DNA of 7,138 bases from a virus (Duplodnaviria > Heunggongvirae > Uroviricota > Caudoviricetes), in IMG/VR virus record IMGVR_UViG_2802429226_000002, positions 1-7,138 of that record, one strand, 5' to 3'. The notes under the pieces are model-generated. The model was given only the letters and a program-made list of their open reading frames with translations. It was not told the origin of the DNA and ran no database searches. Below are positions 1-7,138 of the stretch, in pieces. Within the stretch, counting starts at the first letter, position 1. The number at the start of each line of letters is the position of its first letter. A program made the position numbers and the translations under genes.

Positions 1-159
1 GTGGTTGGTTATTACCCGAAATTAAGCCAGCTCGTTTCCGGCCTGATGCATCACGATATTCTGACCGGAAGCGCAAAATCTTTTGCCGATTTAAACGCGC
101 AGGTTGAGCAACTCAGCAAGCGTTGTTCAGAGGCGTTCTCCAGAGGAGCGTCTGAATGA
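1..159 (+). CDS. 3' end of an upstream early-operon gene (partial; N-terminus lies outside the window). By synteny possibly a P2 B-like or other early gene, identity not established.
   Basis: Frame 1 is open from base 1 to a TGA at 157-159 (translation ...KRCSEAFSRGASE*). The stop overlaps the ATG of the next gene (ATGA at 156-159), typical of translationally coupled phage operons. Not in the ORF track because it has no start within the window. Confidence 0.4.
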   Translation: MVGYYPKLSQLVSGLMHHDILTGSAKSFADLNAQVEQLSKRCSEAFSRGASE

Positions 160-1163
160 TTACTGATGCACGTTGCCATACTGAAAATACCATCAATGTT
201 ATTTTTGTTTCAGGTGGAAAGGACAGCCTTGCTCAGTGGCTTGTCGCTATTGAAGAAAATGTACCCATATTGCCGGTTTTTGCTGATACGGGACATGAAC
301 ATCCACAGACAATGAAATATCTGGATTATCTGGAAAAACGGCTTGGCCCAATTAAAAGAGTCAGGGCTGATTTTTCCTGCCGGATTGAATCAAAGCGCAA
401 GTTTATCCAGACCAAATGGCCTGATTTGTTGGTTAACGATTGTGGAATGTCGGAAGAAGAAGCACGCCAGCGCATCAGTTGTGCGCTGGAAATTCTCAAA
501 CCAACGGGTATCCCGTTTCTTGATTTGTGTTTGTGGAAGGGGCGTTTCCCATCAACCAAAGCCAGATTTTGCACATTTGAACTGAAACATGAGCCCGTGC
601 GTTCTCAGGTAATATTGCCTTTACTCAATGAATTTGAGGAAGTGATTAGCTGGCAGGGAGTGCGTGCTCAGGAATCGCCATCACGCGCAGCTTTACCTGT
701 CTGGGAAGAGGATGCAGACAACACCCCCGGATTGCATGTATATCGCCCGATTTTGCACTGGAAGCATGAAGATGTATTTGCAATAGCCAGAAGACATGAC
801 ATTAAGCCAAATCCGTTATATCAGCAGGGGTGTGGCCGTGTTGGTTGTATGCCATGTATTCATGTCCGTAAATCTGAACTGGCAGAAATTTTTCGCCGGT
901 GGCCGGAGGAAATAAAACGGGTTGCTGAATGGGAACGACTGGTTGCGTCGTGCTCCCGTCGGGGAAATTCCACTTTTTTCCCATCCACACATGATCCGCT
1001 ACGCGCAGAACGTCGTATTGAGATTGTAACAGTCGAGGCATACGGAATAGAAACCTACCATGACTGGACAATGACAACGCGTGGGGGTACTCAGTTTGAT
1101 TTACTGGCTTCGGCGAATGATAAAGCCGTTTGCAGTAGTGTCTATGCCGGTGTATGTGAATGA
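156..1163 (+). CDS. PP-loop ATP pyrophosphatase superfamily protein (PAPS reductase-like), 335 aa; phage accessory gene of unknown role
   Basis: N-terminal SGGKDS motif (nt 210-227) is the classic SGGxDS PP-loop of the PAPS reductase / ATP sulfurylase-like family. A Cys cluster C-x4-C-x2-C (CGRVGCMPC, nt 831-857) lies near the C-terminal third. A GAGGAG Shine-Dalgarno sits at 143-148, 7 nt upstream of the ATG. The stop overlaps the start of gene A (ATGA at 1160-1163). Confidence 0.75.
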   Translation: MITDARCHTENTINVIFVSGGKDSLAQWLVAIEENVPILPVFADTGHEHPQTMKYLDYLEKRLGPIKRVRADFSCRIESKRKFIQTKWPDLLVNDCGMSEEEARQRISCALEILKPTGIPFLDLCLWKGRFPSTKARFCTFELKHEPVRSQVILPLLNEFEEVISWQGVRAQESPSRAALPVWEEDADNTPGLHVYRPILHWKHEDVFAIARRHDIKPNPLYQQGCGRVGCMPCIHVRKSELAEIFRRWPEEIKRVAEWERLVASCSRRGNSTFFPSTHDPLRAERRIEIVTVEAYGIETYHDWTMTTRGGTQFDLLASANDKAVCSSVYAGVCE

Positions 1164-3433
1164 GTCATTCTTTCCAGGAGCAATACACCTGCGTACCTCC
1201 GTCTGCGTTTGCCGCAGGCACCGGTAAGGCGTTTACCGGTGCTTATGCATGGAATGCGCCACGCGAGGCTGTCGGGCGCGAAAGACCCCTTACACGTGAC
1301 GAGATGCGTCAGGTGCAAGGTGTTTTATCCACGATTAACCGCCTGCCTTACTTTTTGCGCTCGCTGTTTACTTCACGCTATGACTACATCCGGCGCAATA
1401 AAAGCCCGGTGCACGGGTTTTATTTCCTCACATCCACTTTTCAGCGCCGTTTATGGCCGCGTATTGAGCGCGTGAATCAGCGCCATGAAATGAACACCGA
1501 CGCGTCGTTGCTGTTTCTGGCAGAGCGTGACCATTATGCGCGTCTGCCGGGGATGAATGACAAGGAGCTGAAAAAGTTTGCCGCCCGTATCTCATCGCAG
1601 CTTTTCATGATGTATGAGGAACTCTGCGATGCATGGGTTGATGCACATGGCGAGAAAGAATCGCTGTTTACAGATGAGGCGCAGGCGCATCTGTATGGTC
1701 ATGTTGCTGGCGCTGCACGTGCTTTCAATATTTCCCCTCTCTACTGGAAAAAATACCGTAAAGGACAGATGACCACGAGGCAGGCATATTCTGCCATTGC
1801 CCGTCTGTTTAACGATGAGTGGTGGACTCATCAGCTTAAAGGCCAGCGTATGCGCTGGCATGAGGCGTTACTGATTGCTGTCGGGGAGGTCAATAAAGAC
1901 CGTTCTCCTTATGCCAGTAAACATGCCATTCGTGATGTGCGTGCGCGCCGCCAGGCAAATCTGGAATTTCTTAAATCGTGTGACCTTGAAAACAAGGAAA
2001 CCGGCGAGCGCATCGACCTTATCAGTAAGGTGATGGGCAGTATTTCTAATCCAGAAATTCGCCGGATGGAGCTGATGAACACCATCGCCGGTATTGAGCG
2101 TTACGCCGCAGCAGAGGGTGATGTGGGGATGTTTATCACGCTGACCGCGCCGTCAAAGTATCACCCGACACGTCAGGTCGGAAAAGGCGAAAGTAAAACC
2201 GTGCAGCTTAATCACGGCTGGAACGATGAGGCATTTAATCCAAAGGATGCGCAGCGTTATCTCTGCCGTATCTGGAGCCTGATGCGCACGGCATTCAAGG
2301 ATAATGATTTACAGGTCTACGGTTTGCGAGTCGTCGAGCCACACCACGACGGAACGCCGCACTGGCATATGATGCTTTTTTGTAATCCACGCCAGCGTAA
2401 CCAGATTATTGAAATCATGCGTCGCTACGCGCTCAAAGAGGATGGCGACGAAAGAGGAGCTGCGCGAAACCGTTTTCAGGCAAAACACCTTAACCGGGGC
2501 GGTGCTGCGGGATATATCGCGAAATACATTTCAAAAAACATCGACGGCTATGCACTGGATGGTCAGCTCGATAACGATACCGGCAGGCCGCTGAAAGACA
2601 CTGCCGCGGCTGTTACCGCATGGGCGTCAACGTGGCGCATTCCGCAATTTAAAACGGTTGGCCTGCCGACAATGGGGGCTTACCGTGAACTACGCAAATT
2701 GCCTCGCGGCGTCAGCATTGCTGATGAGTTTGACGAACGCGTCGAGGCTGCACGCGCTGCCGCAGACAGTGGCGATTTTGCGCTGTATATCAGCGCGCAG
2801 GGTGGGGCAAATGTCCCGCGCGATTGCCAGACTGTCAGGGTCGCCCGTAGCCCCTCGGATGACGTTAACGAGTACGAGGAAGAAGTCGAGAGAGTGGTCG
2901 GCATTTACGCGCCGCATCTCGGCGCGCGTCATATTCATATCACCAGAACGACGGACTGGCGCATTGTGCCGAAAGTTCCGGTCGTTCAGCCTTTGACTTT
3001 AAAAAGCGGCATCGCCGCGCCTCGGAGTCCTGTCAATAACTGTGGAAAGTTCACCGGCGGTGATGCTTCGTTACCGGCTCCCACACCTTCTGAACACGCC
3101 GCAGCAGTGCTTAATCTGGTTGATGACGGTGTTATCGAATGGAATGACCAGGAGGTCGTGAGGGCGCTCAGGGGCGCATTAAAACACGACATGAGAACAC
3201 CAAATCGTCAGCAAAGAAACGGAAGCCCGTTAAAACCGCATGAAATTGCGCCATCGGCCAGACTGACCCGGTCGGAACGAATGCAAATCACCCGTATCCG
3301 CGTTGACCTTGGTCAGAACGGTATCAGCCCTCAGCGATGGGAGCTTGAGGCGCTGGCGCGTGGGGCAACCGTAAATTATGAGGGGGTAAACTTCAGGTAT
3401 CCGGTAAATGATGAGTGGCCGGGATTTAATTAA
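1160..3433 (+). CDS. A: Rolling-circle replication initiation endonuclease, P2 gpA family (HUH superfamily), 757 aa
   Basis: Long ORF with an HUH motif (PHWHMML; H-W-H at nt 2360-2368) and a paired-tyrosine motif G-Y-IAK-Y-ISK (Tyr codons at 2513-2515 and 2525-2527), matching the catalytic signature known for P2 A protein. Position immediately upstream of the hotspot and cos fits the P2 gene order. Confidence 0.9.
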   Translation: MSHSFQEQYTCVPPSAFAAGTGKAFTGAYAWNAPREAVGRERPLTRDEMRQVQGVLSTINRLPYFLRSLFTSRYDYIRRNKSPVHGFYFLTSTFQRRLWPRIERVNQRHEMNTDASLLFLAERDHYARLPGMNDKELKKFAARISSQLFMMYEELCDAWVDAHGEKESLFTDEAQAHLYGHVAGAARAFNISPLYWKKYRKGQMTTRQAYSAIARLFNDEWWTHQLKGQRMRWHEALLIAVGEVNKDRSPYASKHAIRDVRARRQANLEFLKSCDLENKETGERIDLISKVMGSISNPEIRRMELMNTIAGIERYAAAEGDVGMFITLTAPSKYHPTRQVGKGESKTVQLNHGWNDEAFNPKDAQRYLCRIWSLMRTAFKDNDLQVYGLRVVEPHHDGTPHWHMMLFCNPRQRNQIIEIMRRYALKEDGDERGAARNRFQAKHLNRGGAAGYIAKYISKNIDGYALDGQLDNDTGRPLKDTAAAVTAWASTWRIPQFKTVGLPTMGAYRELRKLPRGVSIADEFDERVEAARAAADSGDFALYISAQGGANVPRDCQTVRVARSPSDDVNEYEEEVERVVGIYAPHLGARHIHITRTTDWRIVPKVPVVQPLTLKSGIAAPRSPVNNCGKFTGGDASLPAPTPSEHAAAVLNLVDDGVIEWNDQEVVRALRGALKHDMRTPNRQQRNGSPLKPHEIAPSARLTRSERMQITRIRVDLGQNGISPQRWELEALARGATVNYEGVNFRYPVNDEWPGFN
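3017..3036 (+). other. Candidate origin of replication (ori / gpA nick region) inside the A coding sequence
   Basis: In P2 the ori lies within the 3' part of gene A (established). The sequence GCGCCTCGGAGTCCTGTCAA here resembles my recollection of the P2 ori nick region. Exact site and boundaries are uncertain and from memory only. Confidence 0.3.
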
Positions 3434-3632
3434 TGCTTTGATTTTTTAGTTAGGCTGCTCTAGAATCCACGCCAGTTACCGCTTGGGGTATCCTTGCATT
3501 GCTCTTGGTATTAGCTTTATACAAAGGGTGTAAAGGCTGCTATTGGCAACAATAGTGCTGGCATGGAGATAATCTCATGTTAAAGTTAGTGAAAGTACGT
3601 CAGTACAATCGCTATCGTTTCGGTAAGTGGGA

Positions 3633-3652
3633 GACGGTGTGTGAACACCGTC
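3633..3652. terminator. Perfect 8-bp stem / 4-nt loop hairpin between convergent genes; possible weak bidirectional terminator or RNA-stabilising stem-loop
   Basis: GACGGTGT (3633-3640), loop GTGA, ACACCGTC (3645-3652). It lies about 200 nt after the A stop and about 30 nt after the stop of the - strand ATPase gene. The following T-run is weak on both strands (GTTCTTAC on +), so it is not a textbook intrinsic terminator. Confidence 0.3.
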
Positions 3653-3680
3653 GTTCTTACCCAACCCGATGATATGCGGC

Positions 3681-5900
3681 CTAAGCGGTAACGGTTTCCT
3701 CTTCCTCTTCGTCCATCATTTTCAAATAATGTTTTTCATCACCAGTCATACGAAAAATGGTTTTTAGTTGCTCCATATATTTCTCTGGAGATATATCTCC
3801 CATGTCTGTGATGTTAACTGCATCTGAATGGGAACCTCTATTAATGTATCTATAAAATGCTCTAAAATCATTATTCTTATCATCGCTAGCAAGTTTATTT
3901 AACTCTGTCTGTAATGCATCCGTTCTATGAACAAATGCGAAGTAGTATTCCAGTATATTTCTCATGATGTTAGGTATTATAACTTTATTTACCTTTCCAT
4001 CCTTCGCATCTTTTAATACTTGCCATAGGGACTGGTATTCATTCTGAATGCTCTTTTTCTCTATTTCTGTAATTATGCTATATTCATTTTTTGTTACTCG
4101 TCCAAGATAATAATCACGCTTGAATGTTCTATCTTCTTTGCTTCTAGGAGCTAATTTGATAAGTTCATGAAAGAAATAAAGATTATGTGTGAGTATTAAT
4201 GTTTTCTTTACTGCTTTGTTATTGTTGATTATTTCATGGTGAATTATTGAGGCAATATCGTACACATAATTTTGAGAGAGGCTGGATATTGGATCATCAA
4301 TAACGATAAATACATCTCGCATATCCGTATCATTCTTATCTGTCTTACCTTTACAGCATTCTAGAAAGTAGAGAAAGGTAATTAAGGTTTTTTCACCCTC
4401 GCTAAGAGATCTGTATACATCTTTATCTGTTGTGTTTTCAGAACGTGATATAATATATTTATCATTGCTCTCAGTGTGTTTTTTTATGCTAAAACCATAA
4501 ATTCCTAATAATTTTAGACGTTGATTTATAGAATCTATGGTTGCATCAATATTAGATATTTGATCGCGTAGCTCTTTGATCTTTTTGTTATTGTTATCTC
4601 CTTGTTCTTTTATGGAATTTAATTCAAGTTGATATTGTTCATAAATGATTTTATAGTCATTCTCATATTTTGAGAAAGCTTCAAACTCAGCGTTGCATAA
4701 TTCTCTTATTGCTCCCCATATTTTGTAACGTATAGACTTTTCACTATCCTTAAATTGTTTGACTTTAATATTTATTTCTTTAATTCTATTGTTGTACTCT
4801 GTTATATTATCAACTACCTTTGCTTCAAGGTCGCTATTGGATTCCAAAATAATAGATATAGATGGGTTATTGATTTTATCTAACATCAATTTTAAATTTT
4901 TGTTTGCTATTTCCTCTAATAACGCTATATGAGATGATGTTATATCTTTTTCTTTTGAGGTGATTAATTCACAAGATGAAATCTCTTGTTTTATTTTTTT
5001 TAAATTATCTATGGTAGCGGATTCATAAGACGATCTGATAATGCGTATTTGGTCAACTTTCTTGGAGTAGCTATCATCAAAGATAGATTCTATTGCTTCT
5101 AAAAATTTGTCTTTAATAGTGTCTTCTTGGCAGAATGGGCAACATGTGCCATTTAAATATAATTCCTTCCCTTTTTTCACCCAGTCAAGGTTTTGAAGTT
5201 GTTTAATTGTTTCTGACAAATAGCTATTACTTGAGTCTATAATCGGAGTGGATAAAAATTCTTTATCTTTTTCTGAAATGATATATTTTTCTAAAGGTGT
5301 AATTGATGCAGTGAATTTATCTTTGTTCTTTAAAAGAATACTATATTCTTGAGCAAGTGACTCGATATTAACGTCAGTGGTTTGAGGGGCTTTTTTAACT
5401 TGCTCATAAAATGATCTCTTGCTTCCTAACTGACCTTTCATCAAGATCTTTAAGTCAGATGATCTAAAAGGTTCTGCTTTATTCCATATTAAATCAATAT
5501 ATTCATTTTCTTTATTGTTTTTATCTTTAATTAAACGCTCAATAACGTTTTTTTTATCTTTGTATTTTGTAAGTAGGTCTTGTCTTATAGCTTCTTTTTC
5601 CAGCAATTCTTTTTCAATGTCAGCATTTTCCTTACTTAAAGTGAATACTCCTTTTTGCTCTTTTGCATTATAAAAATTATCCTCAACAAACTTGGTATTA
5701 TAAACCAATAGGCGAAAAGTATCTATGAAAGGACATTCGCATTCTTTGTAGTCCGTGTTATTTGGATTATAGAAATAATTAGATATAGTTGATTTTCCAC
5801 AACCGTTGTGTCCATAAAGTATATTAATTTTTTTTGAGAGATTAAGAGTCGTGAAGCTATCTTTCTTATAGCTGGTTATATTCTTTAATTTAAGTTCCAT
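3681..5900 (-). CDS. ABC/SMC-like (AAA_13-type) ATPase with coiled-coil insertion, CxxC motif and C-terminal effector-like domain, 739 aa; candidate single-gene anti-phage defence protein, RloC/PrrC-like (hypothesis)
   Basis: Walker A GHNGCGKST (aa 30-38, nt 5787-5813). ABC signature LSEGEK (aa 499-504, nt 4389-4406). Walker B VFIVIDDP (aa 530-537, nt 4290-4313) followed by an LTHN H-loop-like motif. About 400 aa of K/E-rich, heptad-like sequence between Walker A and the signature, with CCPFC at aa 253-257 (nt 5130-5144). C-terminal ~150 aa form a separate domain. GAGG RBS 7 nt upstream of the ATG (read on the - strand). The gene is strongly AT-rich relative to its flanks. Confidence 0.85.
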   Translation of the reverse strand: MELKLKNITSYKKDSFTTLNLSKKINILYGHNGCGKSTISNYFYNPNNTDYKECECPFIDTFRLLVYNTKFVEDNFYNAKEQKGVFTLSKENADIEKELLEKEAIRQDLLTKYKDKKNVIERLIKDKNNKENEYIDLIWNKAEPFRSSDLKILMKGQLGSKRSFYEQVKKAPQTTDVNIESLAQEYSILLKNKDKFTASITPLEKYIISEKDKEFLSTPIIDSSNSYLSETIKQLQNLDWVKKGKELYLNGTCCPFCQEDTIKDKFLEAIESIFDDSYSKKVDQIRIIRSSYESATIDNLKKIKQEISSCELITSKEKDITSSHIALLEEIANKNLKLMLDKINNPSISIILESNSDLEAKVVDNITEYNNRIKEINIKVKQFKDSEKSIRYKIWGAIRELCNAEFEAFSKYENDYKIIYEQYQLELNSIKEQGDNNNKKIKELRDQISNIDATIDSINQRLKLLGIYGFSIKKHTESNDKYIISRSENTTDKDVYRSLSEGEKTLITFLYFLECCKGKTDKNDTDMRDVFIVIDDPISSLSQNYVYDIASIIHHEIINNNKAVKKTLILTHNLYFFHELIKLAPRSKEDRTFKRDYYLGRVTKNEYSIITEIEKKSIQNEYQSLWQVLKDAKDGKVNKVIIPNIMRNILEYYFAFVHRTDALQTELNKLASDDKNNDFRAFYRYINRGSHSDAVNITDMGDISPEKYMEQLKTIFRMTGDEKHYLKMMDEEEEETVTA

Positions 5901-5936
5901 TTTAAAACCTCATCATTGCCAATGATATTGTATAAA

Positions 5937-5990
5937 TATTTAAGCTGTTTAACATGAATTATATTGCTAAACGATAAAGATCTACCTCAG
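5937..5990 (-). promoter_or_regulatory. Candidate promoter region for the ATPase gene
   Basis: On the - strand a perfect TATAAT hexamer (plus coordinates 5958-5963) lies about 58 nt upstream of the ATG at 5900. No convincing -35 was found (GGTAGA-like at 17 bp). The region is so AT-rich that chance -10-like hexamers are expected. Confidence 0.2.
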
Positions 5991-6230
5991 AAGTTTACTT
6001 TGTTCAAGCAAAATCTTTTGTTCTAAGAGATATAAAAATTTTTATTAATAGTTTGATTTTTGTTCATGGGATTTCCTTTTTTTATGTTTTTACAAAGTAA
6101 TAACTATGCATGTATCAGGTGCATGGTTTTGCATGTGTCAAAGTTATGCGTTCTCGTTGCTTTACGTCACAGCTAGCGAGGATTCAACGTACTCATGCAA
6201 CTGCATCAAAACCGACTCGTGAAGCGGGCG

Positions 6231-6249
6231 GGCGAGGCGGGGAAAGCAC
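6231..6249. other. cos: cos site: 19-nt cohesive-end sequence of P2-type phages
   Basis: GGCGAGGCGGGGAAAGCAC at 6231-6249 matches my recollection of the P2 19-nt 5'-protruding cohesive end. It is placed as expected in a prophage or circularised genome, between the right-end hotspot and the portal gene Q. Flanking sequence is GC-rich, unlike the AT-rich insert. Confidence 0.7.
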
Positions 6250-6391
6250 TGCGCGCTGGCGGTGGTGCTGATTTTATTTTTTCAGCGTCTCAGCACGTCG
6301 TAATGGCGTTTAGATTGTGCGCCGGGGCGTTGGTGTGTCTGCGGGCTGTTTTGTGCGGTGGTGAGTGTGTGAGGGCGTGATGACGGGGTGT

Positions 6392-6413
6392 AAAAAAGCC
6401 GCCCGCAGGCGGC
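6392..6413 (-). terminator. Rho-independent terminator downstream of the portal gene (- strand)
   Basis: Read on the - strand: stop TGA, 5 nt, GCCGCC-TGCG-GGCGGC hairpin (plus 6398-6413) followed directly by TTTTTT (plus 6392-6397 = AAAAAA). GC-rich 6-bp stem, 4-nt loop, U-tract. Confidence 0.65.
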
Positions 6414-6418
6414 GATGT

Positions 6419-7138
6419 TCAGCCGTTGTCAGTGTCCAGTGAGTAGTTTTTAAAGCGGATGACCTCCTGACCGAGCCAGCCGTTTATTTCCCGAATCCTG
6501 TCCTGTAACGGGATAAGCTCATTGCGGACAAAGACCTTTGCCACTTTCTCAATATCACCCAGCGACCCGACGTTCTCCGGCTTGCCACCCATCAACTGAA
6601 AGGGGATGCGGTGCGCGTCCAGCAGGTCAGCGGAGCTGGCTTTTTTGATATTAAAAAAATCGTCCTTCGTTGCCACTTCACTGAGCGGGATAATTTTGAT
6701 GCCGTCTGGCTTTCCCTGCGGTGCATAGAGAAACAGGTTTTTAAAGTTGTTGCGGCCTTTTGACTTGACCATGTTTTCGCGGAGCATTTCGATATCGTTG
6801 CGATCCTGCACGGCATCGGTGACATACATGATGTATCCGGCATGTGCGCCGTTTTCATAATACTTGCGGCGGAACAGCGTGGCTGATTCATTCAGCCACG
6901 CAGAGTTAAGGGCGCTGAGATATTCCGGCAGACCGTACAGCTCCTGATTAATATCCGGCTCCAGCAGGTGAAACACGGAGCCGGGCGCGAAAGGTGTCGG
7001 CTCGTTGAAGGACGGCACCCACCAGTAAACATCCTCCTCCACGCCACGGCGGGTATATTTTGCCGGTGAGGTTTCCAGTCTGATGACCTTACCGGTGGTG
7101 CTGTAACGCTTTTCCAGAAACGCATTACCGAACACCAG
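6419..7138 (-). CDS. Q: Portal protein, P2 gpQ-like (PBSX-family portal), 3' part only; the N-terminus lies beyond the window end
   Basis: The - strand ORF is open to the window edge (the codon at 7136-7138 is sense) and stops at 6419-6421. It sits immediately beside cos, as Q does in P2. The translation (…YGLPEYLSALNSAWLNE…NGAHAGYIMYV…) is consistent in character with phage portal proteins; family assignment is by synteny plus recollection. Confidence 0.8.
   Translation of the reverse strand: MVFGNAFLEKRYSTTGKVIRLETSPAKYTRRGVEEDVYWWVPSFNEPTPFAPGSVFHLLEPDINQELYGLPEYLSALNSAWLNESATLFRRKYYENGAHAGYIMYVTDAVQDRNDIEMLRENMVKSKGRNNFKNLFLYAPQGKPDGIKIIPLSEVATKDDFFNIKKASSADLLDAHRIPFQLMGGKPENVGSLGDIEKVAKVFVRNELIPLQDRIREINGWLGQEVIRFKNYSLDTDNG

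Follow-up and report, generated by a model that had tools for sequence, protein, structure and literature searches.

The stretch of DNA analysed here (the window) comprises 7,138 nucleotides from a virus of the class Caudoviricetes (IMG/VR record IMGVR_UViG_2802429226_000002, positions 1 to 7,138), and it carries, between a P2-like replication gene A and cos, a block of foreign DNA that is likely to be a defence cassette that entered the P2 gpA-cos hotspot by horizontal transfer, consisting of an RloC-family nuclease gene and a co-inherited small gene set within a structured RNA. We obtained the architecture of the nuclease, the conservation of its catalytic and switch motifs, the location of the block and its foreign base composition. 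A sequence-only reading of the same DNA had pictured this segment as a single AT-rich gene in place of tin and old, bounded by non-coding junctions and very plausibly a defence system. The position, the foreign origin and the large gene all stand, and the proposed defence role gains from a full-length match to a predicted antiphage family and from agreement with the sequence definition of RloC, which by homology points to a probable activity. The cargo is not a single gene, however, since a small open reading frame (ORF) and its RNA accompany the nuclease gene in what had been taken for the left junction.

A predicted RloC-type nuclease gene at the P2 hotspot

The large gene lies at positions 3681 to 5900 on the - strand, convergent with gene A as the sequence-only reading had it, and encodes a protein of 739 aa which we characterised with Pfam, PADLOC and an AlphaFold2 (AF2) model. 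Its architecture combines an ABC ATPase head, a coiled coil with a zinc hook, and a C-terminal RNase of the PrrC/RloC type. Pfam AAA_13 spans the whole protein (E 4.6e-102), the PADLOC model PDC-S06 (PDLC04886) gives a full-length match (residues 2-732 against positions 4-725 of the 727 in the hidden Markov model (HMM); E 4.4e-253), and the PADLOC PrrC model covers residues 454-734 (E 2.4e-14). NCBIfam held no family for the protein, and a PDB sequence search with it returned no match.

Davidov and Kaufmann (PMC2610378) define RloC by the combination of ABC ATPase motifs like those of PrrC, a coiled-coil insert of the Rad50 kind that bears a CX2C zinc hook and, at the C-terminus, the motif Arg-X3-Glu-X36-52-His, its His often preceded by Ser. 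Each of these elements is present, and their conservation was read from the columns of an alignment of 37 homologues sharing 20-70% identity. Among the ABC motifs, Walker A (GHNGCGKST, aa 30-38; positions 5787-5813, - strand) has G30, N32, G35 and K36 invariant, and the segment at 4185-4406 on the same strand encodes the ABC signature LSEGE (499-503), the Walker B/D-loop stretch IVIDDP (532-537) and the switch His572, with invariant columns at L499-S-E-G-E503, D535-D-P537 and H572. The Rad50-like ATPase head is split by a coiled-coil insert with a central CX2C zinc hook, CPFC (aa 254-257; 5130-5141, - strand), of which C254, F256 and C257 are invariant. The C-terminal anticodon-nuclease motif reads R647-x3-E651-x39-S690-H691 (3828-3962, - strand), thus with a spacing of 39 residues and a Ser before the His, and all four named residues are invariant.

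The AF2 model (predicted local distance difference test, pLDDT, 83) likewise has a split ATPase head, with long helices running from residue ~90 to 446, and places the CPFC region in a non-helical apex (residues 249-263) with helices on either side. Its top structural matches are the heads of Rad50 and SMC proteins, with ATPases from retron, PARIS and Lamassu systems ranking next, and one could on this ground speculate that the protein is a Rad50/SbcC-like DNA-repair enzyme or an SMC-type ATPase devoid of RNase activity. We find this barely credible: Rad50 and SbcC lack the C-terminal region, which in the 739-aa protein matches the PrrC profile, the R-E-H triad is invariant among the homologues, and no gene for an Mre11/SbcD-like partner occurs within the window. 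Distant homologues carry labels such as "wobble nucleotide-excising tRNase" (JGI, P0067) and "translation-disabling ACNase" (Streptococcus prophage records). Because it contains the zinc-hook insert and has no linked hsd genes, the protein is not PrrC; judged by its sequence it is an RloC-family anticodon nuclease with a putative HEPN RNase, and is predicted to cut tRNA.

BLASTN breakpoints against four P2-like phages (L002-L005), together with base composition, delimit the cargo as a block at positions 3428 to 6188 (2.76 kb, 31.2% GC, no strand assigned) that has no counterpart in the compared phages. Three of the four phages lose similarity on the left at 3426/3427, and pro483 does so at 3255. 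Similarity returns on the right at 6189-6196 in three of the four; pro147 has just a 65-bp match at 6193-6257 and continuous similarity from 6495. The block lies between replication gene A (1160-3433, + strand; Pfam Phage_GPA, E 3.4e-124), which shares ~95-97% of its nucleotides with the P2-like phages, and an exact copy of the 19-nt P2 cohesive end GGCGAGGCGGGGAAAGCAC (6231-6249, + strand). The latter corresponds to cosR, the last 19 bases of NC_001895 according to its annotation, and was matched in 0 of 200 shuffled sequences. Beyond it follows the 3' part of portal gene Q (6419-7135, - strand; Pfam Phage_portal, with portal protein annotation in relatives).

The difference in composition, which the sequence-only reading had judged by eye, was confirmed by calculation. 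In a sliding window GC is ~0.50-0.60 until ~3450, 0.27-0.33 for ~3750-6150 and 0.55 again from 6150. The 739-aa ORF has 30.0% GC (26.8% at third codon positions, GC3) against 52.0% for the backbone, gene A having 53.5% (GC3 55.3%) and gene Q 52.4% (GC3 65.7%). The AT-rich region 5' of the nuclease gene (5901-6188, - strand; 29.5% GC) contains a promoter-like site at 5951-5922, a consensus scan match that does not exceed the expectation from shuffled sequence. This region occurs in 20 E. coli genomes, always together with the allele of the window.

In the reference P2 record, orf91, tin and old lie between A and cosR, and the old-tin transcript begins on the cos side. Relatives have other cargo at the same site (cdtABC, retron Ec48, Dcm+paraMORC3, DUF4238 or Fic). 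Neither Old (BLASTP E 1.0, P-loop only) nor Tin (E 0.88) shows significant similarity to the 739-aa protein, and the PADLOC matches include no Old, Gabija or PARIS model. Rousset et al. (2022; PMC9122126), who counted 1,650 arrangements among 18,150 loci, described the region between gpA and gpQ as a hotspot of diversity, and the cargo block fits this description in that it lies between gpA and gpQ beside cos, its content varying among otherwise near-identical P2-like phages.

A small gene within a structured RNA

The segment to the left of the nuclease gene has a GC content of 45% (3428-3680; 44.9% for 3434-3680) and holds a conserved ORF of 31 aa, MLKLVKVRQYNRYRFGKWETVCEHRRSYPTR, at positions 3577 to 3672 on the + strand, convergent with the nuclease gene in the window. 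This ORF is supported by the codon-position pattern, a match of the peptide to phrog_21154 (function unassigned; E 4.4e-9), and its linkage to the nuclease in 36 loci. Among 15 enterobacterial copies, variable columns at codon positions 1, 2 and 3 number 6, 8 and 21, and synonymous codon changes exceed non-synonymous ones in 15 of 15 pairs. The GGAG and the ATG are conserved and the ORF is intact in 36/36 loci, including the Vibrio and Pseudomonas versions, whose nucleotide identity is 55-66%. The peptide is basic and hydrophilic (isoelectric point 10.6; grand average of hydropathy -1.21) and evolves more slowly than the ATPase. It matches no Pfam family, its database entries read "hypothetical protein" only, and it is not annotated by the Prokaryotic Genome Annotation Pipeline (PGAP) in the genomes inspected. 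In a representative library of 1.84 billion proteins it had 14 matches, all of them short proteins with the common motif V-x-V-R-x-Y-x-R-x-R-F-G-x-W-E-x-V-C-x-H-x-R-S-x-P.

The ORF is enclosed by a structured RNA of ~220 nt (3475-3692, + strand), supported by folding and covariation. A closing stem of 13 bp, supported by covariation, pairs 3475-3487 with 3680-3692; folding places two leader hairpins at 3515-3535 and 3540-3555 (the latter with a GCAA loop), a hairpin at 3562-3579 that holds the GGAG of the Shine-Dalgarno (SD) sequence and the AUG, all on the + strand, and further helices within the ORF. For 3470-3700 the minimum free energy is -89.7 kcal/mol on the + strand (z -6.2) and -69.2 kcal/mol on the - strand (z -4.4). 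Covariation was assessed on 17 distinct sequences from six genera, in whose alignment 90% of cells are paired. Two-sided changes occur in 15 of the 57 pairs; column shuffles give 7.3 (0/500 reach the observed number) and slid controls 5-8. In the closing stem, which is 96% paired, compensatory changes affect 6 of the 13 pairs, and the first hairpin is 100% paired. The G-U pairs are conserved and would be C-A mismatches on the other strand, which points to pairing of an RNA on the + strand.

The 3' arm of this RNA takes in the final three nuclease codons (V-T-A) together with the stop codon (3681-3692). The C-terminus of the nuclease and the stem therefore cannot vary independently, and base-pairing between the 3' ends of the two convergent transcripts is possible. 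In most enterobacterial alleles the stretch 3680-3692 has 90-100% identity, and in Serratia fonticola 75%. At the other end, a promoter-like site TTGATT-17-TAGAAT (3438-3466, + strand), found by consensus scan only, stops 9 nt short of the closing stem's 5' arm, and its TTGAT and TAGAAT/TAAAAT boxes are conserved in the alignment.

Could the ORF be untranslated, so that 3475-3692 serves only as a non-coding RNA, a bidirectional terminator or a stabiliser of the 3' end of the nuclease mRNA? The great stability of the structure on both strands, the overlap of its 3' arm with the nuclease stop codon, and a 5' untranslated region conserved as much as the ORF itself all speak for this. The concentration of changes at third codon positions, the intact ORF, GGAG and ATG in every locus, database representatives that are without exception short proteins with one motif, and G-U pairs that favour the + strand make it very unlikely. 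With a promoter-like site, a structured RNA and an ORF under purifying selection, the small element looks, by its sequence, like a real and expressed unit.

Several other identities were considered for this segment and rejected. Rfam gave nothing above threshold over 3380-3760. A retron-like RNA was dismissed, as the RT-6 model, whose gathering score is 46.7, reached 19 bits (E 0.08) in one hairpin only and the window has no reverse transcriptase gene. The inverted repeat is not taken for an integron attC-like recombination site either, given that the G-U pairs and compensatory changes indicate RNA pairing on the + strand and that other hotspot cargoes lack it. Finally, a remnant of P2 backbone (orf91) at 3434-3680 was discarded, because other P2-like phages lose similarity at 3426/3427 and the segment accompanies the nuclease gene into non-P2 chromosomal sites.

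Linkage of the two genes and their proposed role

Down to ~36% identity, every relative examined has the small element next to its nuclease gene, in and outside P2 prophages. With a peptide HMM, the small ORF was located at 36 loci, each time adjacent to the ATPase gene (E 7e-9 to 4e-24), with the linked element occurring in Escherichia, Yersinia, Serratia, Xenorhabdus, Vibrio and Pseudomonas. Searching from either side gave the same picture: the small ORF is present in 9/9 loci found with ATPase-containing sequence (at least 36% identity), and the ATPase is adjacent in 24/24 true matches (35-99% identity) of an IMG/VR DNA-pattern scan made without it, the other 7 of the 31 pattern matches, which lack both peptide and ATPase, having been rejected as chance. 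At the 79 more distant ATPase loci listed (L010-L088) and at L127, the element was detected by neither the peptide HMM nor the covariance model, and it was not found in the other P2-hotspot cargoes searched (L002-L005 and P2 itself). In Enterobacterales, Xenorhabdus and Vibrio the two genes converge; the Pseudomonas pair is co-directional and does not overlap, the small ORF starting ~280 nt downstream of the ATPase gene.

Within E. coli, the segment 3428-3680 is 82-86% identical between alleles whose ATPases share ~52-65% of residues, and it adjoins the ATPase gene in each of the three divergent-allele loci inspected. The 253-bp left flank that the alleles share occurs in 94 of 5,426 complete E. 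coli genomes (~1.7%). At least three diverged nuclease alleles occupy the same E. coli hotspot, namely the type of this window (~20 genomes), the APEC O1 type (~44) and an O157/RM14723 type (~52% identity), and all of these groups keep the small gene (84-100% identity). Homologues in prophages of Yersinia ruckeri and Serratia fonticola occupy the same hotspot, and those of Serratia marcescens, Xenorhabdus, Vibrio and Pseudomonas lie elsewhere in the chromosome, at sites that are not P2. As an example of cassette decay, E. coli RM14723 (L008) has an IS481-family transposase between gene A and the small-ORF element (3421-4467), and its ATPase gene (4711-6919) is annotated as frameshifted.

The nuclease biochemistry and anti-phage phenotype that we propose for the cassette follow from homology and from analogy with RloC. 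In the RloC literature, the RNase is silent until a DNA-dependent ATPase/zinc-hook switch is triggered, agents that cause DNA double-strand breaks activate RloC in vivo, and the enzyme excises the wobble nucleotide from certain tRNAs, damage that should be beyond the reach of phage tRNA-repair enzymes. By analogy, the nuclease of the window would be silent in the lysogen until DNA ends or DNA damage from an infecting phage activate its switch; the RNase would then cut the anticodon loop of particular tRNAs, translation would stop and the infection would abort. Carried by a prophage, it may thus provide abortive protection of the lysogen against superinfecting phages.

What the small element contributes is a separate matter. 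Given that the linkage is unbroken across genera, contexts and an inversion, and that the toxicity of RloC is known, a functional partnership is suggested, and our leading guess, a tentative one, is that the 31-aa peptide modulates the nuclease, either as an antitoxin-like brake or as a relay of the trigger. It is conceivable, though we would call it rather unlikely, that the peptide and its locked mRNA go further and constitute an obligatory second component of the nuclease, working as an outside brake or as a relay that signals infection and drawn from a portable family of small regulators that also serves modules of an XRE-type regulator and an M78 peptidase.

Relatives of the peptide in other surroundings bear on this question. 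In three unrelated contigs (a Mu-like prophage, a short metagenomic contig and a Ralstonia Peduoviridae phage), such relatives lie just downstream of an HTH_31 (XRE) and Peptidase_M78 (ImmA/IrrE) gene pair (L129 946-1104; L130 4001-4105; L132 2209-2292), a three-gene arrangement of which we know of no description. A further relative (L133 2685-2882) is flanked by a large serine recombinase gene on one side and a resolvase/invertase gene on the other. The covariance model matches in L130 and over its full length in L133, where the closing stem has a wholly different sequence, which suggests that the end-paired RNA design belongs to the small-gene module as such.

One could also read the small-ORF RNA as an autonomous module, for instance a locked mRNA for a small toxin or an independent moron, that acts on a conserved host target and not on the nuclease; we regard this as possible but doubtful. 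The relatives with other partners, the slower evolution of the peptide compared with the ATPase, and an end-to-end pairing and SD/AUG sequestration that resemble hok-type mRNAs all speak for autonomy, as do the covariance-model matches in L133 and L130 and the element's own promoter-like site. Set against autonomy are the unbroken linkage within the clade (36 loci, several genera, P2 and non-P2 contexts, both orientations), a hydrophilic and basic peptide unlike typical membrane-active type I toxins, and the lack of any identified antisense RNA gene.

The strict co-inheritance of the gene pair and the convergence of the two genes with overlapping 3' ends, together with the toxic and self-limiting character of expressed RloC (PMC2610378), might instead suggest that the cassette serves chiefly to stabilise the prophage, as an addiction or toxin-antitoxin module whose toxin would be the nuclease and whose antitoxin would be the small protein or RNA. 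We consider this improbable as the main role: the hotspot is enriched for validated defence systems, the biology of PrrC and RloC is tied to phage infection and DNA damage, and the Pseudomonas genes neither overlap nor converge. Addiction and defence are in any case not mutually exclusive.

If the small element does control the nuclease, cloning the nuclease alone could mislead, through toxicity or null phenotypes, and the model of RloC as having no external silencer would fail for this clade. Were the partnership obligatory, a "single-gene" defence family would become a two-component one, and an unrecognised class of small-protein partners would be shared between bacterial conflict systems.

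Elsewhere in the window, a second variable site (138-1192) holds a 1,055-bp segment in place of the ~35 bp found at the orf83/A junction in P2 and most relatives. It includes a gene of 335 aa (156-1163, + strand) with a PAPS-reductase domain (Pfam PF01507, E 1.2e-34; phrog_424) and a weak DndC-like match. Some "Peduovirus P2" records have the same gene, as does Yersinia phage P37; DNA modification and anti-defence are possible roles for it in a P2-like phage. Within the GC-rich stretch between cos and Q, a 61-aa ORF (6195-6380, + strand) corresponds to a protein that related phages have annotated as hypothetical (L002 5740-5901, L004 6311-6472), and a strong terminator-like hairpin follows Q (6398-6413, - strand). 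Both are features of the backbone and do not belong to the cargo.

Comparison with known systems

With respect to the nuclease, our finding is correct but already known, as the hotspot, its turnover and the RloC-like AAA_13 gene have been published and catalogued. System #5 in Table S5B of Rousset et al. (2022) is "AAA_13", with 420 occurrences, one protein and the note "RloC-like"; its example sequence is visibly homologous to the 739-aa protein, and WP_000423308 and WP_000423309 in the locus table of that study correspond to the ~65%-identical allele of E. coli HS13-1, 602354 and APEC O1. The file of cloned systems in that study has no AAA_13 entry, and the defence activity of the subfamily is a prediction from homology. 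Anantharaman et al. (2013) described an APECO1_4465 group of ABC-HEPN proteins in prophages, to which the 739-aa protein probably belongs, and the family is present at the APEC O1 hotspot. A 2025 preprint treats an E. coli PDC-S06 ATPase, predicted by PADLOC to be antiphage, as a likely true positive outside known systems. In all these catalogues (PDC-S06, Rousset #5 and ABC-HEPN) the system is a single protein, and the small gene and RNA are not mentioned there; this companion seems to have gone unremarked, missed by defence catalogues and annotation pipelines alike. What the present analysis adds on the nuclease itself is a motif-by-motif case, made on sequence, that an abundant P2 cargo (420 of 18,150 hotspot loci; Rousset et al.) is an RloC-type tRNA nuclease.

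P2 Old shares with the RloC-like cargo the hotspot, the orientation (from the cos side towards A) and an ABC ATPase sensor coupled to a nuclease, whereas the two proteins have no significant sequence similarity and Old has a TOPRIM effector and no long coiled coil. A 2026 preprint reports that Old is an abortive tRNase, and the two may be functional analogues. With Old replaced by this cargo, different tRNA-targeting effectors may be interchangeable at one locus.

The RNA of the small gene is reminiscent of hok, a type I toxin-antitoxin system with a "locked" mRNA, in having a short ORF within a highly structured transcript, paired 5' and 3' ends and a sequestered SD/AUG, with no relation in sequence between the two. 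It does not otherwise conform to a type I toxin-antitoxin system, as there is a structured mRNA but the peptide is not hydrophobic and no antisense RNA was found.

PrrC of the E. coli prr locus resembles the 739-aa protein in its ABC ATPase N-domain and in its C-terminal RNase, which is homologous and has the R-x3-E...H triad. It lacks, however, the coiled-coil/zinc-hook insert, which here extends over ~360 residues, and it resides inside a type Ic restriction-modification locus that silences it, whereas the window contains only phage genes and no hsd.

Also among the closest counterparts is RloC itself, as studied in Geobacillus kaustophilus and Acinetobacter baylyi (Davidov & Kaufmann 2008; Klaiman et al. 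2012, 2013), all of whose sequence features are found in the 739-aa protein, along with a similar size (739 aa against ~800) and carriage on mobile elements. The 739-aa protein is, on the other hand, just ~26-28% identical to database proteins labelled RloC-type, and while RloC is described as self-contained, with an internal switch, the clade analysed here always has an adjoining 31-aa gene and its RNA.

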